A stretch of 64,000 nucleotides of DNA from a virus (lineage: Duplodnaviria; Caudoviricetes), in the IMG/VR virus record IMGVR_UViG_3300023073_000003, positions 4,944 to 68,943 of that record; one strand, given 5' to 3'. The translations under genes and the position numbers were made by a program. A model generated the notes under the pieces. The model was not told where the DNA came from. It saw only the letters and a list, made by a program, of their open reading frames with translations, and did no database searches. Position 1 is the stretch's first letter. Every line of letters starts with the position of its first letter. This document shows, one piece after another, positions 941-63,682 of the stretch.

Positions 941-1789
941 GTGTCTATCTCTAACGCTGCAATGCTTGTGGAAATGAACCTGTCGGTGTGGACCGCACAG
1001 AAGAACGACAAGGGCGCGACCGCCAAGGTCACGACCGACGCCAACGCGCGCTCCGATGCCGGCAACTTCAAGAAGAACCTGATGGCCGGCACCAACCGTA
1101 GAAAGGAGATCGCCGACTATGCCGCGATGTGCCGGACGTGGCACAACGGCAAGACGCTGCCGTGGTCCGACAAGGGCGTGCGGCTGCTGCCGACGTCGCT
1201 GTTCCTCGCCTACAAGAGCGAGATCAACACGCGCCGTGCCGAGTTCGACACGATGGTGGCGGCGTTCCTCGCCGAGTACCCGACGCTGGTCGCGGCCGCG
1301 CACCGGCACATGGGCTCGCTGTTCGACCCGAACGACTATCCGCATGTCGACGAGGTCGCGACCAAGTTCGGCTTCCGCACCGTGTTCTCGCCCGTGCCCG
1401 AGGCCGGCGACTTCCGGCTCGACGTGCCGAAGGCGGAGATGGCTGAGCTCAAGACGCAGTACGAGGTCGCCTATGAGGCGCGCGTCGACGACGCGATGGG
1501 CTCGGCATGGACCAAGTTCTACGAGATGCTCAAGGGTATGTCGGACAAGCTGGTCGAGCCCGAGGACGGCACCAAGGTGTTCCACGCCACCTTCACCTCG
1601 AACGCGGTCGAGCTCTGCGAGATGCTGACGCACCTCAACATCACCAAGGACCCGCACTTGGAAAAGTCGCGGCGCGATCTGGAGAAGGCCATCGCGAACG
1701 TCGACATCGCGGACATCCGCAAGGACGCTGGCACGCGGGCCGACGTCAAGGCGCAGGTCGATGCGATCCTCGATGCTTACGACTGGTAA
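941..1789 (+). CDS. DUF3150-like protein
   Basis: N-terminal LVEMNLSVWTAQK, FLAEYP and FGF...FSPVP pattern recalled from DUF3150-type proteins that accompany MoxR AAA/vWA genes. Confidence 0.6.
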   Translation: MSISNAAMLVEMNLSVWTAQKNDKGATAKVTTDANARSDAGNFKKNLMAGTNRRKEIADYAAMCRTWHNGKTLPWSDKGVRLLPTSLFLAYKSEINTRRAEFDTMVAAFLAEYPTLVAAAHRHMGSLFDPNDYPHVDEVATKFGFRTVFSPVPEAGDFRLDVPKAEMAELKTQYEVAYEARVDDAMGSAWTKFYEMLKGMSDKLVEPEDGTKVFHATFTSNAVELCEMLTHLNITKDPHLEKSRRDLEKAIANVDIADIRKDAGTRADVKAQVDAILDAYDW

Positions 1790-1979
1790 GGGCCGCGCCG
1801 AGATCGTCCGCATCGTCGTGCGCAGCGATCACACAGTGCGGGGGCTGACCCAGTTCCGGGCCTATGTCCGGGTGAACGGAGCGAGGCGGGAGCGCAAGCG
1901 CGACTGCCTCGCCACCGACATGCTGGCGGCGTTCGCCAAGACGCAGGCGGCCTACCGCATCCGAGGCTTCGAGGTGTGA
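1773..1979 (+). CDS. small hypothetical protein (D-x-x-x-A family)
   Basis: motif ATDMLAAFAK, C-terminus YRIRGFEV; start uncertain. Confidence 0.6.
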   Translation: MLTTGKGRAEIVRIVVRSDHTVRGLTQFRAYVRVNGARRERKRDCLATDMLAAFAKTQAAYRIRGFEV

Positions 1980-2152
1980 GAAAGGTCGAGATCGTCGAAG
2001 TCGAGTGCCTCGACAGGCGCGCGCTATACTTCATCGGCTTCGAGGTGGAAGGGAGCAACGAGCAGCTATGGGTGACGGTGACGGCGAAGGATGCGCTCGA
2101 CGCATTCCAGAAAGGGGTGTTGCGCCTGCGAGCGGACGGCTGGTGTATCTGA
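1976..2152 (+). CDS. small hypothetical protein, 58 aa (D-x-x-x-A family; not in ORF track)
   Basis: GTGA overlap; manual translation VRKVEIVEVE...AKDALDAFQKGVLRLRADGWCI*. Confidence 0.65.
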   Translation: MRKVEIVEVECLDRRALYFIGFEVEGSNEQLWVTVTAKDALDAFQKGVLRLRADGWCI

Positions 2153-2349
2153 GAGGCAAGCGCGCCAAGCGGAAGAAGGTCAAGCCGCTGGCGGTGATCC
2201 TGTCGATCACCTGCGATCATCATCGCTCCTTCCGGGTGGTCTTCCTTGGGCGCAACCGGGAGCAGTCGCTGTGGGTCTATGCCCTCGACGAGATCGGGGC
2301 GTTCGTCCGCGTCAGGGAGGTAATCGAGAGCAGAGGGTATCGGCTCTAA
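2143..2349 (+). CDS. small hypothetical protein (D-x-x-x-A family)
   Basis: motif ALDEIGAFVRV, C-terminus IESRGYRL; start uncertain. Confidence 0.6.
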   Translation: MYLRGKRAKRKKVKPLAVILSITCDHHRSFRVVFLGRNREQSLWVYALDEIGAFVRVREVIESRGYRL

Positions 2350-2549
2350 TGGCAAAGCACCGCGCGATGATCCTCAAGATCGAGGAGCAACCTATGTCGT
2401 ACGAGAGCGACACACCGAGGTACAAAATCTGGTTCAAGGTAATGAAGCGGGGCGGTGACGTGCGCGAAGGCGTGGTCTGGGCGCGTGATCCACTCGATGC
2501 CTTCATAGTGGCGAAGGGCTACATCAGGGGCAGGGGGTATCGCATCTGA
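2349..2549 (+). CDS. small hypothetical protein (D-x-x-x-A family)
   Basis: TAATG coupling; motif ARDPLDAFIVA, C-terminus IRGRGYRI. Confidence 0.7.
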   Translation: MAKHRAMILKIEEQPMSYESDTPRYKIWFKVMKRGGDVREGVVWARDPLDAFIVAKGYIRGRGYRI

Positions 2550-2740
2550 TGTGGTACATCAGCTTCGAGTATCGCATCAGCGATATGACCATCCACATCC
2601 GCAGCATCCGGCCCGCCACCTTAGGCCAGCCGGCATTCCGCGAGTGGTTCCTGTCCAACGCCGTCGACGAGCTCGGCGCCTATCTGGAGTTCGTGAAGCA
2701 CATACGTGAGAACACATCCTACGAAGTGAAGGAGCAATGA
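2549..2740 (+). CDS. small hypothetical protein (D-x-x-x-A family)
   Basis: TGATG coupling; motif AVDELGAYLEF. Confidence 0.7.
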   Translation: MWYISFEYRISDMTIHIRSIRPATLGQPAFREWFLSNAVDELGAYLEFVKHIRENTSYEVKEQ

Positions 2741-2741
2741 C

Positions 2742-3632
2742 ATGAAGACCAAGATCAAGATGGACCTGCCCAATACCTACCGCGAGTTCGAGATGGGCGA
2801 CGAGCTCGACGTCAACAACGTCAACCCCATAGTCGGCTACTTCATGCGGTCGCTGATCTGCCGGCTGCACCGTGAGCGTCCGGAGTGGGAGTTCCGCTCC
2901 GAGTGGGCGCATGCCGCCAAGGTGCACACTAGCAAGTCCGAGCACACCCGGTTTGAAATCTACGACGGCGACGACAAGATCGGCCGCATCTTGGCCACCA
3001 CCAAATACGTCAAGGGTACGAACGTACGTGCGTATGAGTACGAGAACCACCGCACGGCCAACGCGCGGCGGCGCGGCGGCGCGACCACCACGGTCAGCGA
3101 GAACAAGGCGTTCAGCGACATCACCAACAACTTCTATTCGCTGACCGTCCCCGAGCGCATCTCCGCTGCCGAGGGTACGCTCAACTCGCAGCTGACCAAC
3201 CACAGCAGCAAGGCGTCGCGCGCGGCGACCGAGGCCAAGGGCAAGCTCGACAAGGCGATCCTCAACTTCACCATGCGCCGCTGGAAGGAGTTCATCGGCG
3301 AGGTGGGCGATCCCGAACTGGAGGAGATCGCACGCGGCTTCCCCAAGCTGGCGCGCACCGCGCAGCAGATGGCCAAGCTTAGCATGGCCCGCACCAATGG
3401 CGAGGGCTACATCATCGTCGACCGGGGCGAGCGCTACATCGTCAAGCGCACCGGCGAGGGCACCAAGGCGCTGGTGATCCCGGCGGCCGAACTGCCCGAC
3501 GCGCTGCGCGCCGGCGTGGGGATGCTGAAGCTGATCGAGCCGAACATCCCCGTGGTCGACGTTGGCATCAAGGCGTCGACCAGTGTATATCTGATCGCCG
3601 TGCTGGGCGAGGAAGAGGAAGTGCTATCATGA
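2742..3632 (+). CDS. hypothetical protein, 296 aa
   Basis: long ORF, phage-like codon usage, AAGGAG RBS. Confidence 0.8.
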   Translation: MKTKIKMDLPNTYREFEMGDELDVNNVNPIVGYFMRSLICRLHRERPEWEFRSEWAHAAKVHTSKSEHTRFEIYDGDDKIGRILATTKYVKGTNVRAYEYENHRTANARRRGGATTTVSENKAFSDITNNFYSLTVPERISAAEGTLNSQLTNHSSKASRAATEAKGKLDKAILNFTMRRWKEFIGEVGDPELEEIARGFPKLARTAQQMAKLSMARTNGEGYIIVDRGERYIVKRTGEGTKALVIPAAELPDALRAGVGMLKLIEPNIPVVDVGIKASTSVYLIAVLGEEEEVLS

Positions 3633-3790
3633 GGCAATCGGACCGCACGGGCACCGCCATTGCCTTCATCGGTGTCGGCATGTGGCTGGGGACGTGGCTT
3701 GGCGCCACACTTGCCGAGCGTGGGCTGATCGTCGCCACCGCCGTCGCCTTTATCGGGTTCGTGATCCGGTATTGGGGGAGGAGCTACTGA
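3629..3790 (+). CDS. small membrane protein, 53 aa (two hydrophobic segments)
   Basis: Manual translation MRQSDRTGTAIAFIGVGMWLGTWLG...AVAFIGFVIRYWGRSY*; coupled at both ends. Confidence 0.55.
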   Translation: MRQSDRTGTAIAFIGVGMWLGTWLGATLAERGLIVATAVAFIGFVIRYWGRSY

Positions 3791-4011
3791 TGAGTAACAC
3801 GCTACCAGAACTAAAGAAGGAGTTGGACCGATGGCCGGGCGTAAGCTCGACCATCGACCACGGCACCCGCCATCCCCGCATCGTGCTCAAGCACAATGGC
3901 ACCACGCGCTTCGTCGTCTACAGCGGCTCGCGCGTCGGCACACGGGGGGTTCTCAACAACGTCGCCAACCTGCGCCGCGCGCTGCGCGAGATGGGCGCGA
4001 CTAGGGCTTGA
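3790..4011 (+). CDS. small basic protein, possibly HicA-like fold
   Basis: GGAG RBS; GTRHPRIVLKHNG...NNVANLRRALR resembles the HicA pattern. Confidence 0.45.
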   Translation: MSNTLPELKKELDRWPGVSSTIDHGTRHPRIVLKHNGTTRFVVYSGSRVGTRGVLNNVANLRRALREMGATRA

Positions 4012-4042
4012 CCTTACCGCTGGTAAGGTGCAGGATGCACAC

Positions 4043-4354
4043 ATGGCACGCACACCGGAGGGTCGAGTCAAGGACTATGTTGTCGACATACTCAAGAGCG
4101 AGGGGGTTTACTACTTCCTCCCCGCGACTGGTGGGTTCGGCCGATCCGGTGTGCCCGACATTGTGGCCTGCGTTGCTGGAATATTTCTCGGCATTGAATG
4201 CAAAGCGGGTCGCGGAAAAGCGACGGCGCTGCAAATGCGCGAGTTGCACCGCATTGCGGCTGCTGGAGGCGTCGGCATCGTGGTGAACGAGCACAACATG
4301 GACCGCGTGCGCAGGCTGGTCCGCAAGATCAAGAGTTGGAAGGAGGCTGCGTGA
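4043..4354 (+). CDS. VRR-NUC domain nuclease (Holliday junction resolvase-like)
   Basis: TPEGRVK, GVPDIVAC, FLGIECKAGRGKATALQ: PD-(D/E)xK VRR-NUC signature. Confidence 0.9.
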   Translation: MARTPEGRVKDYVVDILKSEGVYYFLPATGGFGRSGVPDIVACVAGIFLGIECKAGRGKATALQMRELHRIAAAGGVGIVVNEHNMDRVRRLVRKIKSWKEAA

Positions 4355-4632
4355 GCTACGCAATCGAACACGACATTCCCATCCCGCCGAAGCGTATCCA
4401 CACGCCGGCGGTGTCCAAGTACGACTTCGCCTCGCTGGAGGTGGGCGACAGCTTCGCCGTGCCGCTGGGCACCGAGCGGCGCGGCACCAACTTCCTCAAC
4501 GCGCAGCGCCTGACGGCGGCGGCGGTCAACTACAAGCAGCGCCGCCCCGGTGCGCCGGGCGTGCCGGGCTGGAACTTCACGGTCCGCACGCTCAAGGACG
4601 AAGGCGTAGCCCGCATCTGGAGGACTGCCTGA
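4351..4632 (+). CDS. conserved phage small protein (SKYDF..LEVGDSF type), possible DNA-binding protein
   Basis: HDIPIP...KYDFASLEVGDSFAVP...RIWR pattern; related to 18818..19012. Confidence 0.65.
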   Translation: MSYAIEHDIPIPPKRIHTPAVSKYDFASLEVGDSFAVPLGTERRGTNFLNAQRLTAAAVNYKQRRPGAPGVPGWNFTVRTLKDEGVARIWRTA

Positions 4633-5124
4633 ATGTCAGCCAAGCAGACCCCGGAGAGCTTCTGGGCGCGCGTCGACAAGCGCGACCCCGACGAATGCTG
4701 GCCGTGGACTGGCTCCGTTAATAATTCGGGCTACGGCACCGTCAGTTGGCACGGGATGAGCTACGTCGCGCATCGTGTGGCGGCATGGTTGTCGGGGCTC
4801 GTCGCGCAGCCGCGCATGCCGCGCAAGTCGACTGATCCGACCCATGTCCTGCACCGCTGCGATAACCCTCCGTGCTGCAACCCGGAGCACTTCTTTTTGG
4901 GCACCTACAGGGACAATATGCTCGACGCTTACGCGAAGCAGCGCAAGTTACAACCCAAGGGCGAGAAGCATAGCAACGCTAAGTTGACCGACTTACAAGC
5001 ATCGGTTATCCGTTCTCGTTATGCGGCGGGTGAGCGCCAAGTCCCGCTCGCCAAGGAGTTCGGTGTGAGCCAGTGCGCCATTAGTCTTATTGTTCGTGGG
5101 GAGACGTACAAGTGGACGTATTAG
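4633..5124 (+). CDS. HNH homing endonuclease with C-terminal HTH
   Basis: FWARVDK, ECWPWTG, AHRVA, VLHRCDNPPCCNPEH, AKLT...HTH; free-standing next to the DNA polymerase. Confidence 0.9.
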   Translation: MSAKQTPESFWARVDKRDPDECWPWTGSVNNSGYGTVSWHGMSYVAHRVAAWLSGLVAQPRMPRKSTDPTHVLHRCDNPPCCNPEHFFLGTYRDNMLDAYAKQRKLQPKGEKHSNAKLTDLQASVIRSRYAAGERQVPLAKEFGVSQCAISLIVRGETYKWTY

Positions 5125-6974: not shown

Positions 6975-7605
6975 ACACCCTGTGGTTACGCTGTTGATCG
7001 CACGTATGACGAGCCATCCCGAGGAGTTCTTTACTCCCCCTTTGCGGTGGGAGGTATTCGTCAACGATGCGCGCACGCACGCCACGCCCGAGGACCGGGA
7101 GAAGCTGCAGGCGGCGCTCTCGGCAGTCTGTATGGACCGCCTGCATGCCAATGTGATCGACGAGCTTCTGAATGGCGACGAGCGGCGCGCGGCGCTGGCG
7201 GAGCAGCAGCAACAGCAGGCACGCGCGGCCAGCGTGCAGAACGTCGCGCGCCAGCAGGCCAAGGCGAACGCGCTCGCGCAAGGCTATGGCAGTCAGGCAC
7301 CTCTGACGGCAATGACGGCAGCCGAACTGCAGCACCAGATGAACACGATGGGCACATCGATGCAGAACCTGTTCAATCAGGCGCAGCCATCCTTGGGTAT
7401 CGTAGATAGCCAAGGGGTACAGCAGTCGCTCACCGGCGACGACCTGCGCCAGATGAAGGGGCTGCTCGGCAAGCGCGCCGACAGGGTCATCCTCGACGAT
7501 CCGTTTGCACCGGGCGAGTGGCGCCCGCTGATGAGCGAGCCGTACCCGACGAACAAGGGCACCCTGCTCGGCTCGGTCAAGAGTTTTTTCAAAGGAGGCG
7601 TCTGA
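6964..7605 (+). CDS. hypothetical protein, Gln/Ala-rich centre
   Basis: ORF with RBS, overlapping the pol stop. Confidence 0.7.
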   Translation: MADEHPVVTLLIARMTSHPEEFFTPPLRWEVFVNDARTHATPEDREKLQAALSAVCMDRLHANVIDELLNGDERRAALAEQQQQQARAASVQNVARQQAKANALAQGYGSQAPLTAMTAAELQHQMNTMGTSMQNLFNQAQPSLGIVDSQGVQQSLTGDDLRQMKGLLGKRADRVILDDPFAPGEWRPLMSEPYPTNKGTLLGSVKSFFKGGV

Positions 7606-8621
7606 TGGTCTCGCCGCGCATGCGCAACTTCCTGAACTCGACCACGGCCGGGCAGGACAGCGTAGAAGTACCGATCAAGTTCCGCGAGATGTTCTCGCAA
7701 TCACTGCAGGAGTTGAAAGACGACGATGCTAGCGTTCTCATACTAGTCAAAGGAAGCAAGATCATGTCACATGCCTACAAGGACCGCTCCAACGGGCGTG
7801 GGTTCTACACCGACCCAGCGTCGCGACGGAACGAAGCGAAGTTGTTCTGTACACAATGCAACTTCACCGGCAAGATGCCGATGAAATCATTAATGCCCCC
7901 CGACCAGATTGATAAGAAGTTCGTGCAGCGTGGCTGGGAGCTCGATCCCAACATCTGCCCGACCTGCGTGGAGATCGCACGCAAGGCCCGTCTTACCGCG
8001 CGTAAGAACCGCATGGAAGGCACCGAGACGGACGACAATGTCGTCGACATCACTATCGCGACGGAGATCGAAGAAGTGGGCAAGCCGACATTGAAGCTGG
8101 CACTGACGCGCGGCGCACCGACGCCCAAGCCGGTCCACGAGGCCGCTGAGGCGCTGTTCAAGCCCAAGGTGCCCGAAGCTGCCTCCGAGCCGCGCAATGC
8201 CGCTGTGCCGCGTCCGCAGCCCGAACCGCAGCCTATTCCAGCACCTGCCCCCACACCGAAAGTCGAGAGCAACACCATGGCCACCACCAACGCCACCGTC
8301 CTTGAGCAAGCCGACGCCGCCACCCGGCTCAAGACCCGCCGCATGCACGCGCTGCTGCGCGAGCACTTCAACATCGACGCCGGCCGCTACGTCGGCGACT
8401 GGACCGACGCCAAGATCGGCCACGAGTGCGGCCTGCTGCCGGCCGTGATCGCGAACGAGCGCTCGCTGGGCTACGGCGACCTCAAGGAGCCGACCGAGGT
8501 GTCGGCGATCCGCGCCGAGATCGCCGGCCTGCATGAGATGGCCGACGAGGTGCACAACGCGATCATCGCGGTCGAGCGCCGGCTGGCGGACTTCGTCAAG
8601 TCGCAGGGGTTCGAGGCGTGA
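7605..8621 (+). CDS. hypothetical protein with CxxC/CxxC Zn-ribbon and C-terminal HTH-like/coiled-coil region
   Basis: CTQC and CPTC; GGAGG RBS; TGATG coupling. Confidence 0.7.
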   Translation: MVSPRMRNFLNSTTAGQDSVEVPIKFREMFSQSLQELKDDDASVLILVKGSKIMSHAYKDRSNGRGFYTDPASRRNEAKLFCTQCNFTGKMPMKSLMPPDQIDKKFVQRGWELDPNICPTCVEIARKARLTARKNRMEGTETDDNVVDITIATEIEEVGKPTLKLALTRGAPTPKPVHEAAEALFKPKVPEAASEPRNAAVPRPQPEPQPIPAPAPTPKVESNTMATTNATVLEQADAATRLKTRRMHALLREHFNIDAGRYVGDWTDAKIGHECGLLPAVIANERSLGYGDLKEPTEVSAIRAEIAGLHEMADEVHNAIIAVERRLADFVKSQGFEA

Positions 8622-19066: not shown

Positions 19067-19100
19067 CTCCCCCGCCGTGCCACCGGCGGGGGAGTTTTTT
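19067..19100 (+). terminator. Rho-independent terminator at the convergence of the two arms
   Basis: perfect 11-bp stem CTCCCCCGCCG/CGGCGGGGGAG followed by T6. Confidence 0.9.
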
Positions 19101-40858: not shown

Positions 40859-41253
40859 TTCTTCTTGTTAAACCCTTTCAACGTCTCTGCGAAGCGTGCC
40901 CGCTGGCCGAGCTTCCCCGGTGCCTTGGCGGCCGTCGCGAGCGCCTTGGCGGGGATTTTTTTACCAGCGGGCACTCCCATCTGCGCGTGCAGCGCACCGG
41001 GCTTCTTGATCGCAGCCGAAATATCGAGGCTCCCGCCGGCGGCATATCCTTGCGCAAACGGGTTCCCGCCCTTGGGCTTGTCCTGCTTGAACGACGGGTC
41101 CTTACCGCCGGTAAGATTGCTCGGTTTGGCCTTACCCTTGACCGGCATCGAGTTCGGATCGCGGTCGGTCGGCTTCGTGCTGCGGACGAACGGATTGGTC
41201 TTCTTGCCACCCTTCGTCACGATGCCCATGCCACGCGAACTGCGCATCAGCAC
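40855..41253 (-). CDS. small basic head/core protein
   Basis: AIKKPGALH..MGVP.GKKIP...GKLGQRARFAETL; highly basic. Confidence 0.75.
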   Translation of the reverse strand: MLMRSSRGMGIVTKGGKKTNPFVRSTKPTDRDPNSMPVKGKAKPSNLTGGKDPSFKQDKPKGGNPFAQGYAAGGSLDISAAIKKPGALHAQMGVPAGKKIPAKALATAAKAPGKLGQRARFAETLKGFNKKK

Positions 41254-54504: not shown

Positions 54505-54581
54505 TGGCGGCCCTGACAGGACTCGAACCTGTGGCCCTCAGTTTAGGAAACTGTCGCTCTGTCCTGCTGAGCTACAGGGTC
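54505..54581 (-). tRNA. tRNA-Arg(CCT)
   Basis: 77 nt; TAGCTCAG...GGA D-arm with A20, anticodon loop TT-CCT-AA, GGTTCGAGTCC T-arm, encoded CCA; mismatches at 2:71 and 27:43. Confidence 0.92.
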
Positions 54582-55323: not shown

Positions 55324-55668
55324 GTTCCATTGACGGGGGGTCTCCCTAATAGCGGAGGGGTAGTATCCCCGGATTTATAATAATGATCATCGAATGTGCA
55401 AAACACTAATAAGGGGGCGCGCGCGGGAACCTAACTCACAGCTGCCCCCCTGCCCCCCGGTGGGTTGCGCAGCCTTACCGACGGTAAGGACCCCCTCCCC
55501 CCTCCTAGCCTATTGAAAACACACGATAATTCTACCCCTCTTGCTATTAGTAACGTATCTATAGCAGAGAAGGGTTGCCGGAAGGGAGACATCCTTCCGG
55601 TAGCGGGATTTCCCCGCAACCCTCCCTCCGCCTAGCGGACCGGGTTTTGACATCGTTGGAGAAGTGAA
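55324..55668. promoter_or_regulatory. non-coding divergence region between the arms (possible genome end/pac and early promoters)
   Basis: 345-nt gap with AT-rich patches, G/C runs, inverted repeats and one CTTAC-N5-GTAAG site. Confidence 0.55.
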
Positions 55669-56532
55669 ATGGCTACCAAGCCAACACCTAAGCTCTCGTC
55701 AAAGACTGACGCGAACTACAAGACTTTGCTTGTTGCGCAGGCAAAGATCGAAGCCCAAATTGCGGCTGCAGCTGAGAAGCTGGAAGCCGAGGGCAAGGGC
55801 GAGACTGAGACTGTCTCGCCGGTCGACGCCAAGGCGGCCAAGGCCAAGGCTGCGGCCAAGGTCAAGGCGGAAGATGCGGCCGCAAAAGCGGCGCGCAAGG
55901 ATGCCGACGCCAAGGCCAAGGCGGCCAAGGATGAGGTCGCCAAATCCGAGGAGCAGCGCGAGCGCGACATGGATGAGGCGGAAGTCTCGGAAATGCGCGA
56001 CATGGCGCGCAAGCTGAATAGCTTGAGCAAGGCCATGGCGAACTACGCGGCCGATACCAAGCGGACGCTGATGAGCCGGGGTGCGTTGGGCGTCATGCTC
56101 AACAACGACCTCTCGCCACAGCTGAAGGCAATCCCGCGCCTCGCGGGGCTGCACTGGACGGACGTCAATTCCAAGAATGCCGATTGCGAGGCGATGAAGG
56201 TCCTCCTGACCAACATCGAGAACCATCGCAAGGCATACGTGGACATCTACGTCACTCCGCAGGAGGACATCGGCTACAAGGGTGGCACGAAGAATGCCAG
56301 CTACAAGTCGTGGTCCGACATGCGGACGCTCGCCAAGAAGCTGGACGGGTTCGCCCCTCCGCCGCGCGATCCGAAGCCGCTCGTGACCAAGGTCAAGGTC
56401 GACCTGACCAAGCTGTATCGGGCAGGGCAGGTCGCAGGGTTAAGCCCCAAGATCGACAAGGCGATTGCCGACATCGGCAAAATCCTTCGGGACCTTGGCG
56501 TCGACCTCAGCGAGTTGACCAAGAGCGTCTGA
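55669..56532 (+). CDS. first early gene; Lys/Ala-rich hypothetical protein
   Basis: GGAGA RBS; KAAKAKAAAK segment; own terminator. Confidence 0.8.
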   Translation: MATKPTPKLSSKTDANYKTLLVAQAKIEAQIAAAAEKLEAEGKGETETVSPVDAKAAKAKAAAKVKAEDAAAKAARKDADAKAKAAKDEVAKSEEQRERDMDEAEVSEMRDMARKLNSLSKAMANYAADTKRTLMSRGALGVMLNNDLSPQLKAIPRLAGLHWTDVNSKNADCEAMKVLLTNIENHRKAYVDIYVTPQEDIGYKGGTKNASYKSWSDMRTLAKKLDGFAPPPRDPKPLVTKVKVDLTKLYRAGQVAGLSPKIDKAIADIGKILRDLGVDLSELTKSV

Positions 56533-56832: not shown

Positions 56833-56860
56833 CCGCCGCCCGATTTCGGGCGGCGGGTTT
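56833..56860 (+). terminator. Rho-independent terminator
   Basis: 10-bp stem CCGCCGCCCG/CGGGCGGCGG followed by GTTT. Confidence 0.7.
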
Positions 56861-57446
56861 CGTGATAGTGATTTATGTGTGTGCGCGTCTCGTTCACCAC
56901 GTTACCAGCGTAGCACCAAGGGTGTAGCTACCTTACTAGTGGTAAGACATACCTACATACGTATCAGGAGGTAGCGGCCCCTGAGACCCCCCTGATGTCT
57001 GTGTGTGACTATGATGCCGGTTTATAATTATACAAAAGTGTTACCTTACGTCAGTAAGGATCACGTAAGTTATTGATCTAGGGCGCTATATACACTGTAA
57101 ATTATACAATTACACAAAAGGGGGTCTGGAATTACACGAGGTAAGTTATTGATATACATACAATAGATCAATTATACGCGCGTAGCACGAAAAACAACAA
57201 ACCCCCGTTGTGATCGGGTGTGTTCGCGGGTTCCGGCATCTCTCTCGCGCATGCGCGCGCACATGGGGGTGTATGTTTTTTTTTGCGTATAATTGTATGT
57301 TTGTATAAATAGATAGATAAGAGTAGAAGAAGAAAGGATTTTCCCGACACCAGCTTATACGCTCGTAACAAATTCTGTAAAATTACCCCCATGTTCTTCC
57401 GCGTAACCCGTTGTATGGTAAGCAAAACACTTTGTCTAATTATCCC
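56861..57446. other. AT-rich non-coding region, candidate replication origin
   Basis: marked GC drop; repeated AATTAYAC, two GTAAGTTATTGAT copies, T9 run. Confidence 0.55.
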
Positions 57447-57476
57447 TTGACCCTCCACCCTCTCCTGTGCTACTCC
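57447..57476 (+). promoter_or_regulatory. sigma70-like promoter, probably leaderless, for the RHH gene
   Basis: TTGACC...GCTACTCC a few nt before ATG 57483, no RBS. Confidence 0.5.
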
Positions 57477-57482
57477 GCGCCT

Positions 57483-57878
57483 ATGAAACAGGTGAACATC
57501 CGCATCGAACCTGCTGACTACCTCCGGTGGGGCGCGCACGCTACCGCTGCTGGGCTCAGTGTCCCGGCATTCGTTCGGCAGCTTGTCGAGCAACACCTCG
57601 CCACGGCTCCGCCTCCATCCCTGCGCATCGTCGTGCACTCCCAAACCCCCGAGGGTCAACGCCGCGCCGCCCGTGCCGAGGCACGCGCCGTGCGCAAGGC
57701 TGCCGAGCGTGCCGAGGCACGGGCGGCGCGCAACACCGCCAAGGAGCAGGTCCGCCACAAGCGCGCACTCGCCCAAGCCCAAGTGGAGCAGGCCCGCGAC
57801 GCCGCACGCCGCGCGCGCACGCGCGCACGAGCGCGCGCTCGCCGCAACCCGAACTACGTGCCCGGCTGGGATGACTAG
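57483..57878 (+). CDS. ribbon-helix-helix (CopG/Arc-like) DNA-binding protein with Arg/Ala-rich tail
   Basis: MKQVNIRIEPADYLRW..HA.AAGLSVPAFVRQLVEQHL. Confidence 0.75.
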   Translation: MKQVNIRIEPADYLRWGAHATAAGLSVPAFVRQLVEQHLATAPPPSLRIVVHSQTPEGQRRAARAEARAVRKAAERAEARAARNTAKEQVRHKRALAQAQVEQARDAARRARTRARARARRNPNYVPGWDD

Positions 57879-57964
57879 CTCCTTACGTTGGTAAGGATAC
57901 TCATGATAGCACTCGTCGGCCCAAGACCAAATCCGCGCGTTCTGCAAACGCCGACCTAGATCAC

Positions 57965-58017: not shown

Positions 58018-58746
58018 ATGCAGACGTACACGACCGGCCGCCTAGTCAGCACGCCAGACACCGACGAATATCTTACGTTAGTAAGGGAACGCTTCCTCCC
58101 GCAGGGTATCCTCCGCGCCGAGGCCGAGCAGTCCCGCACCACCGGCAAGTTCTTCGTGCGCTTCACCTTGCGCGACGGCACGACCTGCCTGCACCACACG
58201 CGCATGCGGTTCGACCGGATGATCGAGGCGATGGAGTTCGCTCACGCCTGCGTGCAGGGCCAGCATCAACCCGCCATCCTGCAGAAGCTGCCGGCCCGCC
58301 ACACCAACACGACCGCCAGAGGCACACCTCTCGCTCTTACCACTAGTAAGATAAGCCCAACCCTCGACGAGCTCATCACCTCACACGGCCCGCGCCGCGC
58401 ATGGGCCTCAGAGGTGAAGCGCCTCACCCGCGCCGCGTTCGACTGCAGAGACCCCAAGCAGCGCTCCTACACGATGCGCTTGCTCACCCACGCCCGTCAG
58501 CAAGCCGACGCCTATGAGTTCGACCTGCCGCCCGTGCCCGTCCACCAGATCGTCGAGCCCGAGTTCGTCCGGCCGCTGCACCGCACCGTGCGCCGCTCGC
58601 GGCCGAGCATGGAGCTCACCGCCGACGACGTCATCAACCTCGCCCTTGCCGAAGCCCACGAAGAGGAAGCCCACGACATCGACACCGAGATCGCAGCCAA
58701 CCGCCTCATCCGCCAACTCCTGCAGGAAGCGCACGCCCATGTATAA
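58018..58746 (+). CDS. hypothetical early protein
   Basis: ORF downstream of promoter and RBS. Confidence 0.75.
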   Translation: MQTYTTGRLVSTPDTDEYLTLVRERFLPQGILRAEAEQSRTTGKFFVRFTLRDGTTCLHHTRMRFDRMIEAMEFAHACVQGQHQPAILQKLPARHTNTTARGTPLALTTSKISPTLDELITSHGPRRAWASEVKRLTRAAFDCRDPKQRSYTMRLLTHARQQADAYEFDLPPVPVHQIVEPEFVRPLHRTVRRSRPSMELTADDVINLALAEAHEEEAHDIDTEIAANRLIRQLLQEAHAHV

Positions 58747-58924
58747 GCCTGTCTTCGACATCCTCCCGCCCGAGCCGGCACCCGTGCCGCTCCTCATCGA
58801 TCCCGACGTCGTCGAGGTCTTGACCGAGCTCGCCGACACCACCAGCCATGCAGTCCGCCGCACCATCACCGTCAGCGAGATCATACGTCAGCTGCTGGAC
58901 CGCTGTGGCCACTACTACTCGTAA
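58739..58924 (+). CDS. small RHH-like protein
   Basis: VPLLIDPDVVEVLTELA...TVSEIIRQLLD. Confidence 0.5.
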   Translation: MYKPVFDILPPEPAPVPLLIDPDVVEVLTELADTTSHAVRRTITVSEIIRQLLDRCGHYYS

Positions 58925-58940
58925 GAAGGAGACCGACACC

Positions 58941-59531
58941 GTGAAGAAGTATCTCAAGAACCTGCCGAGCGCGCAGCGCCCGAAGAAGTCCGTCCGCAAG
59001 GCATGGAAGCGCTGGCTGCGCGGGCAAGCGCCCGTCATCCTCCTGTACGACGAGCATGCGCCCGGCCTACCTGTCCCGGCGCGCGCGCTGCGCGCCCTCG
59101 ATGAGATGCTGTCCGTGCCACGCGGCTGGGACGAAGTGCCGGCTGGCACCGAGCACATGGACGGTCCTGCCGTGTGCCGCATGGGTGAACCCACGCCCAC
59201 CGAGGACGACCTCCACGCCTACAAGCCCATCTCGAACAAGCTCGTGCGCGAAGCCAACCGTGCCGTCCGCGCGCTGATCGCGCACGACGAACTCTACGCG
59301 CAGCACTTCGTCACCCACTGGCACGATGAACTCCTGTCCGCGCTCCCGCCCGAGGTCGTCGCCGAAGAGGAGGCCAACGCCGACCACTTGGCCGCCGTCG
59401 ACGCGCTCAGCCGCGCCTGTGCCGAGCAGCTGGCCGACCTGCGCGCCCTCGGCTTGGATGCCGTCATCCACTTCCTCGCCGTCGAGCTCGCGGGCTACCG
59501 CGAGGAGCAGGCGACGGGCGCGCCGAACTGA
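58941..59531 (+). CDS. hypothetical early protein
   Basis: AAGGAG RBS, GTG start. Confidence 0.7.
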   Translation: MKKYLKNLPSAQRPKKSVRKAWKRWLRGQAPVILLYDEHAPGLPVPARALRALDEMLSVPRGWDEVPAGTEHMDGPAVCRMGEPTPTEDDLHAYKPISNKLVREANRAVRALIAHDELYAQHFVTHWHDELLSALPPEVVAEEEANADHLAAVDALSRACAEQLADLRALGLDAVIHFLAVELAGYREEQATGAPN

Positions 59532-59725
59532 TGCCGCGCGCTCGCACCCGCCCACCCGTCCTGATCAAGGGCCAGACCCTGCAGGCATGGCGCGACTGGC
59601 TCACCGATGAGCTCACGCCGCCCATCGTCGCCAAGCCCGAGACCAAGTATGTTCTCGAAGCCATGCTCGAACTGATCGAGCTTACCATCCGTAAGAAGGA
59701 GACCACACCCGATGCCAACATCTGA
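59531..59725 (+). CDS. small hypothetical protein
   Basis: TGATG coupling. Confidence 0.65.
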   Translation: MPRARTRPPVLIKGQTLQAWRDWLTDELTPPIVAKPETKYVLEAMLELIELTIRKKETTPDANI

Positions 59726-60321: not shown

Positions 60322-61209
60322 ATGTCACTGAAGTGGAACACGTTAAGGGCAATGCCCTCGCTCCCCAACTATGCGCGCGCCGCCGCGTACGAGGCCGGCG
60401 TCAAGCCGATGCGCGGCCGCAAGCTCAAGCCGCTGGGCCGGCGCACGCACACCCACCAGACCATCGAGCGCTTGGCCGATGGCTCGATCTGCATCTGCAT
60501 CCCCCTCTGGAACGGCCACGTCTCTCCACCCGGCGGCCCGCCCAAGGACACGCTGATCCACTACCGCGTCGACGGCACCATCGTCCTTGCTGGCACGCAC
60601 GGCAGCGCGCGAGCGACCGAGTGCGAGATCATCGATCATGTGCTGGGCTGGAACGTACACTCGAAGCACGGCAAGATGTGGGTCGAGACGACACAGGGAG
60701 CCGTTCCTGTGGCCTCCGGCCTGTCGACGGCCTTCCGGCCTAACTCGGCGCGCTACTGCAAGCCTGACCCCCTGCAGCCGCACGTCATGCAGGTCCACGC
60801 CATCGACCGCAAGGGTATTGCCGTGGCCCGCGCGCGCTACGGCAACTTCCTCAAGTTCGCGCGCGGTATGTCCAAGCTGCGCAACCTCGCCGACAACCCG
60901 CTCACCCACGACGAGCTCGTCAATATGTTCGGCACCAACAAGTACGGTTATGTCGCCGTGCCCGCATGCCCCGGCGACTGGAACTGGAAGCGCAGCGACC
61001 TGCTCACCATCCAAGCACATATGCTGAGCGACGAGCCGGTCGACCAGATGTGGGCCTACATGCTGTTCGCGCGCCACGGCAAGAACATGGCCACGCGGTT
61101 GACGAATGCTATCATAGCTCTGCACCCCGATGAGGCGCTCAAGCTCGTCGAGCATACCGATGGTAAGGTCCGCAAGGATAACTACCTTTGGGTGTTTAAG
61201 CAGAATTGA
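60322..61209 (+). CDS. hypothetical early protein, 295 aa
   Basis: TAAGGAG RBS; long ORF. Confidence 0.8.
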   Translation: MSLKWNTLRAMPSLPNYARAAAYEAGVKPMRGRKLKPLGRRTHTHQTIERLADGSICICIPLWNGHVSPPGGPPKDTLIHYRVDGTIVLAGTHGSARATECEIIDHVLGWNVHSKHGKMWVETTQGAVPVASGLSTAFRPNSARYCKPDPLQPHVMQVHAIDRKGIAVARARYGNFLKFARGMSKLRNLADNPLTHDELVNMFGTNKYGYVAVPACPGDWNWKRSDLLTIQAHMLSDEPVDQMWAYMLFARHGKNMATRLTNAIIALHPDEALKLVEHTDGKVRKDNYLWVFKQN

Positions 61210-61220
61210 GCTTAAACGGC

Positions 61221-61248: not shown

Positions 61249-61393
61249 AAGAAGATAAGAAGTGTGCACCAAAGCACACCCAAGACCAACCACCGAACCT
61301 TACTGGAGTAAGATCACCATGGACACCACCCACTTCGCCGCCCGTCCGGGCGGCGGCATTGACATGCGAGCCGTTTGAGGTAAGTTCACCCAC

Positions 61394-61882
61394 ATGAAAC
61401 ACGGCATGGCACCGCGTAACCAAGCGCGGCACTGGACCTATCGGCGCTGGCAGCACATGATCCAGCGCTGCCACAACCCCAACGACAATGACTATGCCCG
61501 CTACGGCGGCAAGGGCGTGCGCGTGTGTGACCGCTGGCGTTTCGGTGAGGGCAACATCTCTGGATACACGCTATTCATGGAGGACATCGGTAAGTATGCC
61601 AGCCGTAAACTCTCACTCGACCGCGTAGATAACAAGCGTGGGTATGAGCCCGGCAACGTGCGCTGGACAACTATGAAGGAGCAAGCAAACAACCGCCGCA
61701 ACACGCGCGTCCTAGTCGTGAGCGGCGTTACTAGGCCATTGTCCGAATGGTGTGTGATTTATAATATCGGACCTAAGACTGTACTGTATCGGCTACGTAT
61801 TGGTATGTCAGATGAGGCAGCCCTGCTGACGCCGGTCGCACCACGAAAACCACAAACAAGGAGCAACCAACACCATGGCTAA
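61394..61882 (+). CDS. HNH homing endonuclease
   Basis: TYRRWQHMIQRCHNP...YGGKGVRVCDRW...LSLDRVDNKRGYEPGNVRW.T..EQANN. Confidence 0.9.
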   Translation: MKHGMAPRNQARHWTYRRWQHMIQRCHNPNDNDYARYGGKGVRVCDRWRFGEGNISGYTLFMEDIGKYASRKLSLDRVDNKRGYEPGNVRWTTMKEQANNRRNTRVLVVSGVTRPLSEWCVIYNIGPKTVLYRLRIGMSDEAALLTPVAPRKPQTRSNQHHG

Positions 61883-62954
61883 TACACATATCAGCTTCGG
61901 CAGCACGCTGGACCTAGAAGAGACCGCGCAACTCATTGCCGTGTGCGGCGACGTCAACAAGTTTTTCCTACGTGGAGAACCAGGCATAGGCAAGTCCAGC
62001 ATCATGCGCACGCTCAAGGAAATCCTCGGCGAGCGCTACGCCTATGCCTATATCGACGTGTCGACGCTCGACTTGGGCGACATCGGTTTCCCCGGCATCA
62101 ACCATGACGAGCGCGTCGCCGAGTTCTTCCCGAACGTGCGCTTCGCGATCCACCGCAACATGCCGGTCGTGATCATGCTCGACGAGTTCACCAAGGGCAT
62201 GCAGCCGGTGCAGAACATGCTCCACCCGCTGCTCGAAGCCGACAACCCCCGGCTCGGCGACAAGCCGCTGCCGCCCGGCAGCATCGTGTTCCTGACCGGC
62301 AACCTCGGCAGCGACGGCGTCGGCGATACGCTCAAGGCGCACAGCATCGGGCGCATCACCGTGATCGACGTGCGCAAGCCCAATGCCGAACTGTGGCTGG
62401 GCTGGGCCGTCAACAACGACATCGACCCGGTCATCATGGCGTGGGTCAATCAGTTCCCGCATTGCCTTGAGAGCTACACCAGCGGCGATCAGGAGGGGAA
62501 CCCGTACATCTTCAACCCGAAGAAGCCGAACCGCTCCTACGTCTCGCCGCGCTCGCTGGCGCGGGCGAGCAATCCGGTCAGCCGGCGCGATCAGATCACG
62601 CCCAACGCACTGGTCGCCAGCCTGATTGGCACGCTCGGCGAGGCGGCCGCGCGCGACCTCCACGCCTATGTCGACTACCAAGACCAGTTGCCATTGTGGA
62701 GTGAGGTAGTTAAGAACCCTACCAAGGCGAAGCTGCCTGAGGCGCCCGGGGCTTGCGCGGTTATGATCTTTGGCGCAGTAACCAAGGTCACGGGCGAGAC
62801 CATCGACCCATGGATGACGTATATTGCTAGGATGGAACCGGAATGGCAAGCCGTGTTCGCCGTGAGCATTGCCAAGAACCCGCAGAAGCAGGGCGTCGCG
62901 TTCATGAGCCGTGCGTTCCGCGATTGGGTTTTGAAAAACGAAGACATACTTTAG
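61875..62954 (+). CDS. MoxR/AAA_5-like ATPase
   Basis: Walker A GEPGIGKS, Walker B IMLDEF, LTGNL.SDGVGD, SPRS. Confidence 0.88.
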   Translation: MANTHISFGSTLDLEETAQLIAVCGDVNKFFLRGEPGIGKSSIMRTLKEILGERYAYAYIDVSTLDLGDIGFPGINHDERVAEFFPNVRFAIHRNMPVVIMLDEFTKGMQPVQNMLHPLLEADNPRLGDKPLPPGSIVFLTGNLGSDGVGDTLKAHSIGRITVIDVRKPNAELWLGWAVNNDIDPVIMAWVNQFPHCLESYTSGDQEGNPYIFNPKKPNRSYVSPRSLARASNPVSRRDQITPNALVASLIGTLGEAAARDLHAYVDYQDQLPLWSEVVKNPTKAKLPEAPGACAVMIFGAVTKVTGETIDPWMTYIARMEPEWQAVFAVSIAKNPQKQGVAFMSRAFRDWVLKNEDIL

Positions 62955-63014
62955 GTTTTGGGTTGTTGCTTCCCTTCCGGATATGGGTTATGCCTTTGTC
63001 CGGAAGGAAACGCA

Positions 63015-63632
63015 ATGACTAGCTACCATGAGTATGAAGGCAAGCTCCTTACCCTGCGGCAGATATCGGCGGCCACGGGCTTGCCTTACTCCACCCTGTG
63101 GGGGCGCGCGCGCAACGGGCAGCCGCTGACCGAGAAACCGTACAACCACGGCGTTGCCGATGCTAACCGCCGGCGCACCAAGCACGGCGCGACGGTCGAC
63201 GCGCGCCAAGGGAAATCCGACCGTCTCTATAGCGTGTGGTGCGTGATGAAGGATCGGTGCAGCAACCCGAACAACGTCGCGTATCACCGCTATGGTGGGC
63301 GCGGGATCAAGGTCTGCGACGAATGGGTCAACGACTTCGCGGCGTTTCGTGCTGCAGTCGGGACGTGCCCTGCGAAAGGTATGACCTTGGATCGCATCGA
63401 CAATGACGAAGACTACGCGCCCGGCAACATGCGCTGGGCCACGCGCAAGGAGCAGGCGAACAACCGATATACCAACGTGCGTATCACGTACAACGGTATG
63501 ACCAAGACCCTCGCCGAGTGGGCCGAGCATTTCGGCTGGGCCTATTCGGTGTTGGGCAACCGCTGGAAGAACGGCGAGCGCGAGATCGCCCGCCTGATGC
63601 GGCCCCCGTTTTCGCGGGCTGAGAACTACTGA
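63015..63632 (+). CDS. HNH homing endonuclease (paralog of 61394..61882)
   Basis: LYSVWCVMKDRCSNP...YGGRGIKVCDEW...TLDRIDNDEDYAPGNMRWATRKEQANN; start at ATG 63015. Confidence 0.9.
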   Translation: MTSYHEYEGKLLTLRQISAATGLPYSTLWGRARNGQPLTEKPYNHGVADANRRRTKHGATVDARQGKSDRLYSVWCVMKDRCSNPNNVAYHRYGGRGIKVCDEWVNDFAAFRAAVGTCPAKGMTLDRIDNDEDYAPGNMRWATRKEQANNRYTNVRITYNGMTKTLAEWAEHFGWAYSVLGNRWKNGEREIARLMRPPFSRAENY

Positions 63633-63639
63633 TCTTCAA

Positions 63640-63659
63640 GCGGGGGCGAAAGCCCCCGC
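63640..63659 (+). terminator. GAAA-tetraloop hairpin (terminator or processing site)
   Basis: GCGGGGGC-GAAA-GCCCCCGC, no U-tract. Confidence 0.45.
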
Positions 63660-63682
63660 CCAACCTTACGAAAAGGTAAGGC

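Follow-up and report, generated by a model that had tools for sequence, protein, structure and literature searches.

Does a soil phage that carries copies of a short palindrome even in its protein-coding genes use these copies as recognition sites, and if so, which factor reads them? A first-pass annotation of a 64,000-nucleotide stretch of this phage (the window, bases 4944-68943 of the 68,943-bp virus record IMGVR_UViG_3300023073_000003; coordinates are those of the window unless stated otherwise) had listed 22 perfect copies of CTTAC-N(4-6)-GTAAG, written into genes with rare codons. We confirmed this observation. Exact searches gave 15 copies with an N5 spacer, 6 with N4 and 1 with N6, at the positions listed, whereas dinucleotide-preserving shuffles led us to expect 0.00-0.01 copies per spacer length. 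The whole record contained 24 copies, and a control pattern, reversed but not complemented, gave 1. Of the 42 CTTAC and 38 GTAAG pentamers of the genome, 24 of each sit in the palindromes, so the pair is the unit. The arms extend by one selected position, Y before CTTAC in 22/24 copies and R after GTAAG in 24/24, which gives YCTTAC-N4-6-GTAAGR. Three near-matches that had also been listed, at 5646, 57131 and 61153, exist, but one-mismatch copies were not enriched (5 seen, against 6.35 in codon shuffles), nor was there an excess of compensatory stem variants. The sixth arm position is Y or R on each side independently and not base-paired (10 complementary pairs, against 11.25 expected). The pattern is all-or-none, and these are features of two separately read half-sites.

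Further evidence that selection acts on the nucleic acid was obtained from the coding copies. The claim that they use rare codons held: CTT makes up 5.5% of Leu codons, GGT 15% of Gly codons, CGT 8% and AGG/AGA 6%/1.6% of Arg codons, AGT 4.5% of Ser codons and GTA 4.3% of Val codons. All 13 LTx[GRSC]K peptides are encoded by the motif, against 1.05 such peptides expected, an about 12-fold over-representation. Codon-preserving shuffles had been proposed beforehand as a test of the idea; in 1000 synonymous-codon shuffles the mean number of copies inside genes was 0.59 and the maximum 3, against 16 observed. Where homologues could be aligned, the coding copies were ungapped substitutions, not insertions. 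The element is selected against codon usage and even against protein sequence.

The copies lie in unrelated genes. Copies with an N5 spacer were found at 1776-1790, overlapping the TAA stop of a conserved 282-aa early gene (941-1789) and codons 2-6 (LTTGK) of a small ORF starting at ATG 1773; at 4013-4027, intergenic, 13 nt before a VRR-NUC-like gene (ATG 4041) and in the same syntenic place as the last early-arm copy of the related phages G002 and G003; and at 7992-8006, in frame (LTARK) in ORF 7518-8621. The helicase gene has an N4 copy at 12089-12102, in codons 20-24 (LTAVR, with the rare GTA and AGA), and an N5 copy at 13205-13219 (LTKRK), which aligns without gaps to LEKEG, LEKAG and LDKHG in relatives. 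An N5 copy at 16426-16440 lies in the primase-helicase gene (LTHGK). Genes on the minus strand carry N5 copies at 24106-24120 (giant 2496-aa virion protein, LTAGK), 32257-32271 (680-aa late protein, LTFGK), 37734-37748 and 37800-37814 (209-aa repeat protein, LTSGK twice; at the first, relatives have TETGK or NVAGK), 41101-41115 (132-aa late protein, LTGGK) and 53291-53305 (304-aa first gene of the late arm, LTSGK; relatives differ, ungapped). An N4 copy at 33346-33359 is intergenic in the late arm, and on the minus strand its 3' arm runs into a GGAGG ribosome-binding site.

As had been claimed, density peaks at 55.4-63.7 kb (10 copies). Overlaps with stop codons, ribosome-binding sites and start codons (1776, 4013, 57882, 59681, 61299, 63665) are also real. 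In this region N5 copies lie at 55474-55488 (intergenic, about 180 nt upstream of the first early gene, described below) and 56932-56946 (in an AT-rich 650-bp intergenic region, downstream of a classic terminator at about 56835-56860), and an N4 copy at 57045-57058, 16 nt downstream of a TATAAT hexamer (57023-57028). An N4 copy at 57882-57895 starts 3 nt after the stop codon of RHH1 (57483-57878, plus strand), a ribbon-helix-helix-like protein. ORF 58018-58746 contains an N4 copy at 58072-58085 (LTLVR) and an N5 copy at 58336-58350 (LTTSK). RHH2 (58739-58924, plus strand) is a second small ORF that looks RHH-like by eye only. The N5 copy at 59681-59695, at the end of ORF 59531-59725 (LTIRK), is directly followed by AAGGAG and the next start at 59712. 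The N4 copy at 61299-61312 is intergenic, as is the N6 copy at 63665-63680, 2 nt before ATG 63683, in which a ribbon of AAGG/TAAGG serves as ribosome-binding site.

Comparison with relatives changed the picture. Roughly 60 related environmental podophages, with portal proteins 56-71% identical to that of this phage, each carry 5-21 copies of a perfect palindrome that is specific to the genome; cultured HTVC023P-type and Caulobacter RW-type phages are only 31-41% identical and lie outside this group. About 14 of the 80 portal loci examined showed such a palindrome, as did 48 of 80 further early arms. In these relatives the palindrome is confined to the roughly 10-kb early arm, mostly in the 5' leader or intercistronic space just before the ribosome-binding site and typically about 22 nt before start codons. 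Within a genome the arms are invariant and the spacers variable, and we found no orientation bias of the spacers in the four relatives G001, G002, G003 and G005. Two close relatives, L166 and L164, share backbone genes that are 80-99% identical and near-identical intergenic flanks, but every palindrome is swapped. Two others, L129 and L118, carry a 27-bp cassette that is cleanly absent in L124.

We next asked which protein changes together with the motif. Conserved early proteins did not. The primase does not track it, its identity being 53, 59 and 53% for G001-G002, G001-G003 and G002-G003. The recognition helix of the XRE protein is nearly the same in phages with different motifs, and the RHH family that relatives carry is 98% identical between two phages with different palindromes. 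In contrast, the positionally conserved first early gene (E1; here 55669-56532, plus strand, 287 aa) falls into families that match the motif classes: family A with [C/G]T[A/T]AC arms, family B with xxTAC-N4 arms, family C with CTTAAC, and a separate family for CCTGATAC. Both critical pairs of close relatives differ in E1, although a few small accessory ORFs also differ in both. The E1 of this phage is a distant family-A member. Contigs retrieved through new family-A homologues all carried CCTAACA-N-TGTTAGG, with one copy about 150 nt before and one about 40 nt after the E1 gene, but these contigs are close kin of the set from which the association was derived.

We therefore favour, tentatively and at less than even confidence, the view that the palindrome is the recognition site of a phage-encoded, sequence-specific factor that evolves together with it, and that E1 is the best candidate for this factor. 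The sites, their selection, the pattern across the group, the concerted turnover and the covariation with E1 follow from the sequence comparisons, whereas binding by E1, DNA as its target and the regulatory outcome are inferred. In this view E1, being made first, could act on the whole early arm at once, most likely by binding of a dimer or oligomer to duplex DNA as a roadblock or operator that times or shuts off early expression; we favour DNA over RNA-hairpin recognition only slightly. E1 proteins of different families start with Lys-rich tails (in this phage the N-terminal ~100 aa are rich in Lys, Ala and Glu), which is typical of nucleic-acid binders. However, searches assigned E1 to no Pfam or PHROG family and revealed no recognisable DNA- or RNA-binding domain, and no reliable structure could be obtained for it. 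The covariation is partly confounded by linkage and shared ancestry. Two contigs, L142 and L138, share the CTTAC-N4-GTAAG arms with this phage but have a family-B E1 with no detectable similarity to its E1. Spacers of 4, 5 and 6 within one genome are unusual for a rigid dimer on duplex DNA and fit a hairpin loop better. The determinant could also be encoded outside the loci examined.

The alternative that survives best, though we consider it unlikely, is an RNA-level operator. The transcribed palindrome would fold into a 5-7-bp hairpin just upstream of, or around, the ribosome-binding site, and an early protein (E1 or another) would read it to repress or time translation, in the manner of T4 RegA or an RNA-phage coat protein, or to direct mRNA processing or protection; copies inside genes would act on mRNA stability or ribosome passage. 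In relatives the distance between palindrome and start codon has a mode of 21-23 nt, and about 38% of sites lie within 30 nt, against 23% of random positions. Some copies enclose the ribosome-binding site (in the relative L044) or the ATG itself (G001 44907, 46880 and 49625; genome position 2913 in this phage). Where a TATAAT box is visible it lies 30-35 nt upstream, so the palindrome is transcribed as leader. The variable loop length (4-6) is tolerated, and RNA hairpins are moderately stable (-3 to -10.6 kcal/mol, median -5.8). On the other hand, stems are invariant and loops free, the opposite of most RNA hairpin-protein recognition; no G-U or compensatory variants were seen; and the flanking Y/R positions are selected but not paired. 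In this phage the geometry relative to starts is not fixed (from -12 to +16 nt), and many copies lie deep inside long genes.

The first-pass interpretation was only partly supported. It treated the element as a site under selection at the DNA level, and the element does behave like a recognition site for a sequence-specific factor. Of its three models, that of matS/parS-like landmarks is not excluded, although doubtful. Sites of this kind, read on DNA for a purpose other than transcription and resembling those of matS/MatP, Noc or SlmA, parS, or the distal KorB operators of plasmid RK2, could mark the genome or its early arm for stepwise entry, compaction, protection from nucleases, replication or packaging. 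The copies are exact and all-or-none, many lie inside genes and far from any promoter, and they are restricted to one genome domain in relatives but span the genome here. Against this, no ParB-, MatP- or SlmA-like protein was found among the early proteins scanned, and the preferred position just before start codons in relatives suggests a link to gene expression.

A second model, stoperator-like operators of an RHH repressor (RHH1 or RHH2) that silences the genome, as in mycobacteriophage L5, is not supported and appears improbable. RHH1 is preceded by two copies plus a near-copy in its promoter region and followed by a copy, its beta strand (KQVNIRI, Q-x-N-x-R) resembles by eye that of Arc, it has an Arg-rich tail, and half-site centres lie 9-11 bp apart, as for RHH dimer-of-dimers operators; a profile match to NikA (E 0.0011) was below the cut-off. 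In G001 and G002 an RHH gene also ends next to a palindrome. But RHH1 and RHH2 have no homologue in any relative, including L138 and L142, which share the same arms, and, as described above, the RHH family of relatives does not follow the motif. No integrase or partition gene turned up in the ORFs scanned (about 35 of roughly 85), and stoperators are asymmetric and oriented, which these sites are not.

It is very unlikely that there is no sequence-specific reader and that the element is a structural hairpin in a small regulatory cassette, spread and homogenised by recombination between similar leaders. Intergenic copies do behave as discrete cassettes with their own few flanking bases, as shown by the 27-bp presence/absence and the precise swaps, leaders next to the sites are similar within a genome, and the phages encode an exonuclease and a Gam-like protein. 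However, spacers differ between copies while arms are invariant, coding copies in this phage share only the arms and arose by substitution without flanking homology, and compensatory stem variants are lacking. Similarly unlikely is a host protein whose different sites were adopted by related phages on different hosts: no conserved phage protein tracks the motif and close relatives can differ in it, but the motif does track E1, and we know of no precedent for hijacking a host factor at 10-20 early sites. The weakest model, also proposed in the first-pass annotation, is that of single-strand DNA hairpins priming the primase, which is not supported because, although the phage encodes a large primase-helicase (PrimPol-like N-terminus plus DUF927), spacing of 2-4 kb in the replication arm is compatible and a palindrome gives a hairpin on both strands, the sites of relatives lie only in the early arm, the primase does not follow the motif, gaps of 8-12 kb occur in the late arm, ssDNA hairpins are weak (median -3.5 kcal/mol) and compensatory variation is absent.

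The suggestion that such an element was undescribed is only partly right. The closest case is the 17-bp palindrome of Cluster O mycobacteriophages (TGTTCGG-NNN-CCGAACA; PMC4351075), with tens of copies in a roughly 70-kb, apparently lytic phage genome, invariant arms, a variable centre, no orientation relative to transcription, greater density toward one genome end and a third or more of the copies inside coding regions. Its function is unknown, a dimeric DNA-binding protein being predicted but not identified, and its authors reached a conclusion similar to the landmark idea. The lineage, host and sequence are unrelated; here the spacer length varies (4-6), coding copies demonstrably bend protein sequence, relatives show a genome-specific motif limited to the early arm, and a covarying candidate gene is identified. 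Stoperators of Cluster A mycobacteriophages (L5 gp71; PMC6550527, PMC9283540) are likewise phage-specific sites dispersed in about 24-36 copies, many in short intergenic spaces and acting away from promoters, that co-evolve with a phage protein, but they are 13-mers bound by a monomer, oriented with transcription, and belong to temperate phages with an immunity repressor, while no lysogeny genes were found among the ORFs scanned here. KorB operators (OB) of the IncP plasmid RK2 are about a dozen perfect 13-bp palindromes on a 60-kb replicon, some at promoters and some far from any promoter or inside genes, read by one global regulator; KorB is a ParB-family CTPase, no such protein was detected among the proteins scanned here, and this is a virus, not a plasmid. 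The promoter-stem-loop (PeSL) cassettes of T4-type phages are short repeats with a stem-loop in front of many early genes in a plastic early region, with cassette-like gain and loss, but they contain an early promoter and are not exact palindromes, while here the cassette holds no promoter hexamers, arms are invariant with variable spacers, and one genome has copies inside conserved genes.

Taken together, the finding that each related phage carries its own palindrome, which changes together with the first early gene, indicates that this is probably an uncharacterised protein-and-site control system. In our reading, this group of podophages places such sites in its early arm, and this high-GC phage has uniquely expanded the set beyond it into replication and structural genes, by point substitutions that changed amino acids, which would put the whole genome under the reach of the factor.

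Exact searches confirmed the palindrome CTTAC-N4-6-GTAAG reported in the first-pass annotation: we found the N5 form 15 times, the N4 form 6 times and the N6 form once, at the positions that it had listed, whereas dinucleotide-preserving shuffles expect 0.00-0.01 copies per spacer length. The observation itself therefore held. The complete 68,943-bp IMG/VR virus record (rated complete, and of which the searched stretch is bases 4944-68943) contained 24 copies, while the non-complemented reversed control pattern gave one. The arms of the 24 exact copies are invariant and enclose 18 different spacers. Of the 42 CTTAC and 38 GTAAG pentamers of the genome, 24 of each are paired, indicating that the palindrome, not the half-site, is what is enriched. 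The base preceding CTTAC is C or T in 22 of 24 copies, and the base following GTAAG is G or A in all 24. These two bases are complementary in only 10 copies, against 11.25 expected if they are independent, so that the sixth position is selected on each side separately rather than as a base pair.

To determine at which level selection acts, we called genes by third-position GC, a crude procedure whose result nevertheless agrees with the two-arm layout of the genome. Every coding N5 copy then reads CTT-ACN-NNN-NGT-AAG in frame. All 13 LTx[GRSC]K peptides of the proteome are encoded by the motif, though CTT represents only 5.5% of Leu codons, and GGT, CGT and AGT 15%, 8% and 4.5% of theirs, and the peptide itself occurs 13 times against 1.05 expected from composition. 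By these gene calls, 16 copies lie fully inside ORFs, while in 1000 shuffles of synonymous codons within genes the mean number of copies inside genes was 0.59 (maximum 3). In the helicase, the primase, a 209-aa repeat protein and the 304-aa first late gene, the LTxGK stretch aligns without gaps to different residues in homologues (e.g., LTKRK with LEKEG, LEKAG and LDKHG). Thus, these copies arose by substitutions that changed the protein, not by insertion. One-mismatch copies were at background (5, against 6.35 in the shuffles), and variants that keep pairing but change one stem pair numbered 2. The element is all-or-none, with no sign of selection for pairing alone. We also noted, at 54505-54581 on the - strand, a tRNA-Arg with anticodon CCT, which reads AGG, a rare codon here (6% of Arg). 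It lies in the early region on the strand opposite to the surrounding genes, and the N4 in-frame form of the palindrome needs AGR codons.

The phage encodes DNA polymerase A, a helicase, a PrimPol/DUF927 primase-helicase, an exonuclease, portal and TerL. Genes run on the + strand from about 53.8 kb through the end of the record to 18.8 kb of the window (early and replication genes), and on the - strand from 53.7 kb down to 19.1 kb (virion genes). Ten of the 24 copies lie within 8.2 kb of the early region. An AAA_5 (MoxR-like) ATPase (61875-62954) and a DUF2201 metallopeptidase-like/VWA protein (genome bases 3552-4832) form a conserved early pair in all relatives, and in two relatives (G001 and G002) both genes carry a palindrome copy at the same internal position. 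An AT-rich 650-bp non-coding stretch (56860-57480), which follows a classic terminator, holds several TATAAT-like boxes and a repeated GTAAGTTATTGAT unit (57066 and 57143) that begins with a half-site. It may be the main early control region or an origin. No cultured phage is close: megablast against cultured phages gave no match, and portal identity is at most 41% to Synechococcus, Planktothrix, pelagiphage HTVC023P-type, Roseobacter CRP and Caulobacter RW phages. IMG/VR, in contrast, holds hundreds of relatives with portals 56-71% identical, and relatives in IMG/VR and metagenomes number roughly 480-600. The first 50 kb of HTVC023P (of 60.9 kb) contain no such palindrome, and Caulobacter phage RW has only five to six copies of TGCAA-N8-TTGCA in its early region. 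Literature searches found no description of this element in the HTVC023P-type papers. Among sequencing runs, the phage was found only in assembled contigs of two or three soil or leaf-litter DNA runs, with no RNA run listed, and these contigs showed the same sequence and no informative variants, ends or nicks.

Four complete relatives and one 78%-complete relative (G001 to G005; the present genome is G000) lack the CTTAC motif, but most have a palindrome of their own: CTAACA-N-TGTTAG in 13 copies in G001, CTAAC-N3-GTTAG in 10 copies in G002, TTAGTGAC-WW-GTCACTAA in 9 copies in G003 and GGTTAAGTC-N-GACTTAACC in 8 copies in G005, while G004 shows only a weak signal, 4-5 copies of CCCAC(G)..(C)GTGGG. 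Except for the weak and more scattered set of G004, all copies lie in the roughly 10-kb early arm between the TerS-like gene and the DNA-polymerase region. About 14 of the 80 portal-centred loci showed the same pattern, and so did 48 of 80 further early arms fetched with an alignment of a conserved 282-aa early protein, with up to 20-21 copies per arm. One 13-kb contig (L012, also fetched as L142) and a further fetched locus, L138, share the CTTAC/GTAAG arms, with a fixed N4 spacer. Within a genome the arms are invariant while the spacers differ, without consistent orientation. In relatives the 3' end of the palindrome lies most often 21-23 nt before a start codon, the layout being palindrome, about 10 A-rich nt, ribosome-binding site, then ATG, and it sometimes encloses the ribosome-binding site or the ATG. 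Where a TATAAT box is visible, it lies 30-35 nt upstream of the palindrome. The site is therefore in the leader, not part of a promoter. The last copy of the arm precedes a classic terminator and the VRR-NUC gene in G002 and G003, and the G000 copy at 4013 is in the same place. By eye, this copy follows a 73-aa HicA-like small protein (3791-4011) and precedes a VRR-NUC-type nuclease (4041-4354; YFFPATGGFGRSGVPD...ECK motif), which is conserved in nearly all relatives. Only G000 carries copies throughout the replication and virion genes and mixes spacer lengths. It also has the highest GC content (64.5% against 39-61%).

Comparison of close relatives showed that the sites turn over together. 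L166 and L164, two fetched early-arm loci, have backbone genes 80-99% identical, and at homologous intergenic places their flanks are nearly identical, but CCTAACAATGTTAGG is replaced by CCTGATACGTATCAGG at every site. Upstream of the AAA gene, L129 and L118 carry a 27-bp cassette holding CTTAACTGTAGTTAAG, which is cleanly absent from L124 between identical flanks. So all copies of a genome change together on a short timescale, and this, combined with invariant arms and variable spacers, argues for a trans-acting reader of the arm sequence.

We then asked which gene tracks the motif. Several early proteins were excluded because near-identical proteins go with different motifs: the 282-aa family (99-100% identity), the RHH family of relatives (98%, between L164 and L166), a TraR/DksA-like zinc-ribbon protein (100%), the AAA ATPase (97%) and VRR-NUC (97%). 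The primase does not follow the motif, and neither does the XRE protein (15558), whose recognition helix is nearly the same in G001, G002 and G003 despite their different motifs. AlpA (15271) has no homologue in relatives. The conserved early proteins of 295 aa (60322-61209) and 296 aa (2742-3632) were also rejected, because the 295-aa family is absent from L166 and the 296-aa family is only 30% identical between L166 and L159, which have the same motif. Both gave confident AlphaFold models (pLDDT 90), but no convincing match among solved structures (Foldseek E > 0.1; best VIA Z 6.2, for a frataxin-like subdomain, and 3.5), and they may be new folds. Between L166 (9256-10131) and L164 (11251-12108) the 296-aa family protein is identical except for three short hypervariable patches (residues about 28-45, 60-78 and 137-170), which suggests diversifying selection on a surface. 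An association of the presence of protein families with the CTAAC class of motifs was discarded as confounded by ancestry.

The gene that does follow the motif is the first gene of the early arm (E1), which starts 100-150 nt after the first palindrome. Its products fall into unrelated or barely related families that match the motif classes: family A with CTAACA, CTAAC and GTAACC arms; family B with CATAC, CCTAC, CTTAC, CGTAC and CGTAG arms, mostly with N4 spacers; family C with CTTAAC; and a further family with CCTGATAC. Both close-relative pairs with different motifs differ in E1, although a few small accessory ORFs differ as well. The G000 counterpart (55669-56532, 287 aa) is a distant family-A member (hmmsearch E 5.6e-5), which shares the C-terminal AL..LGVDL motif and carries an extra Lys/Ala/Glu-rich N-terminus. 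Family-A homologues found in a search of 5.8 billion proteins are unnamed and carry no Pfam domains. The three that we traced to contigs all lie as first early gene, and all are flanked by CCTAACA-N-TGTTAGG, with one copy about 150 nt upstream and one about 40 nt downstream, and 6-13 copies per locus; these contigs are kin of the set from which the association was derived, so that this test is only partly independent. A family-B profile retrieved nothing from PDB, ESM Atlas look-ups for E1 and for the 295-aa protein gave only unnamed viral clusters and poor models, and a homodimer prediction for E1 gave no verdict.

Taken together, the data best fit a phage-encoded reader, tentatively E1, that recognises two half-sites. 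The sites, their selection, their concerted replacement and their covariation with E1 rest on the sequence comparisons, whereas binding by E1 and the nature of its target are inferred, and the function is inferred from position and timing only: it could be gating or shut-off of the early programme or, in G000, control or marking of the whole genome. The invariant arms with free spacers, the independent Y/R flanks, the absence of wobble or compensatory variants and the lack of orientation favour duplex DNA. On the other hand, the tolerance of N4-N6 in one genome and of different spacers between genomes, the leader position close to translation starts and the moderate hairpin stability favour a hairpin (RNA or extruded DNA). 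We place duplex DNA only slightly ahead. The interpretation offered in the first-pass annotation, which proposed operators of an RHH repressor, priming hairpins for the primase or landmark sites, was only partly supported.

Landmark sites of the ParB/KorB-parS/OB or MatP-matS type are not excluded, although we found no Pfam or PHROG hit to the ParB, KorB or MatP family among the proteins scanned, which did not include all ORFs. The KorB operators of RK2 share the perfect-palindrome, promoter-distal layout, but need such a ParB-family protein. A stoperator system read by an RHH protein is less well supported. RHH1 (57483-57878) is NikA-like with an E of 0.0011, below the Pfam cut-off, and the RHH pattern of RHH1 and RHH2 (58739-58924) was read by eye. 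Neither has a counterpart in L138 and L142, which share the arms, and the RHH family that relatives do carry does not track the palindrome. The stoperators of Cluster A phages share the dispersal and, if the inferred binding by E1 holds, the co-evolution with a phage-encoded binder, but they are asymmetric, oriented with transcription and belong to temperate phages, while the present site is a palindrome whose spacers show no consistent orientation. No integrase or ParAB hit was obtained among the roughly 35 ORFs scanned with Pfam or PHROGs, which left out about half of the small ORFs. A purely structural mobile cassette is less well supported too. T4-type PeSL cassettes contain an early promoter plus stem-loop, and there are no conserved promoter hexamers in or beside the present repeat, the TATAAT boxes lying outside the repeated unit. 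A host-factor site is likewise less well supported. By eye, relatives encode a GcrA-like protein (L164, 16588-16929; an alphaproteobacterial cell-cycle regulator motif) and a TraR/DksA-type C4 zinc-ribbon protein (L164, 5076-5408), which hints at alphaproteobacterial hosts and at direct action on host RNA polymerase. The alphaproteobacterial, Sphingomonadales-like signals are only tentative leads to the host. N4-like hairpin promoters, which would be read by a giant virion RNA polymerase, were dropped, though not formally excluded, because the 2496-aa virion protein (19099-26589, - strand) resembles, over residues about 1700-2490 only, 'DarB-like antirestriction' giant proteins of PEp14-, Skulduggery- and Atu_ph08-type podophages and not a known virion RNA polymerase; its first 1700 residues match nothing, and it has no Pfam or PDB sequence match. 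Priming signals of the ssi/RepB' type (RSF1010), which are strand-specific single-strand hairpins at an origin, recognised by a cognate primase, are the least likely, since the 24 copies are symmetric and genome-wide, the sites of relatives lie in the early arm only, and the primase does not covary and matched PHROG primase families and DUF927 only.

The closest described phenomenon, a resemblance in kind and not a homologous family, is the 17-bp palindrome of Cluster O mycobacteriophages, which has 34 invariant-arm copies, a third or more in genes, and is denser at one end, its function being unknown (PMC4351075). The present element has likewise tens of copies with invariant inverted arms and a variable centre, is spread throughout the genome with a higher density at one end and a substantial share inside coding regions, and is not oriented with transcription. 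Its sequence is different, and the phage belongs to another lineage, a podovirus-like genome related to IMG/VR viral contigs and, distantly (portal 31-41%), to HTVC023P-type and Caulobacter RW-type phages. What is new here is the family-wide diversification of the motif, the concerted swaps, a covarying first-early gene, and one genome in which the site has been written into conserved genes. A more far-reaching reading, which is not excluded but which we consider rather unlikely, is that a widespread group of environmental podophages uses a previously undescribed two-part system, consisting of a fast-evolving first-early protein (E1) of no known fold family and a genome-specific palindrome placed before most early genes. 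In this view, protein and sites would be replaced in concert between close relatives, in the manner of an immunity or specificity switch, and in this soil phage the system would have been extended to the whole genome by rewriting codons and amino acids in replication and virion genes.

Dispersed exact palindromes in apparently lytic phages, reported for Cluster O in 2015, have had no explanation and no candidate reader. The present group of phages offers a comparative handle, with dozens of natural 'specificity swaps', clean cassette gains and losses, and one gene, the first to be expressed, that changes with the site, which makes the question directly testable. If E1 is the reader, it would define a new nucleic-acid-binding family and a new way for lytic phages to gate their early programme, and it may also set cross-immunity between related phages. 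The G000 case shows how strongly such a system can shape coding sequence, with a 12-fold excess of one pentapeptide.
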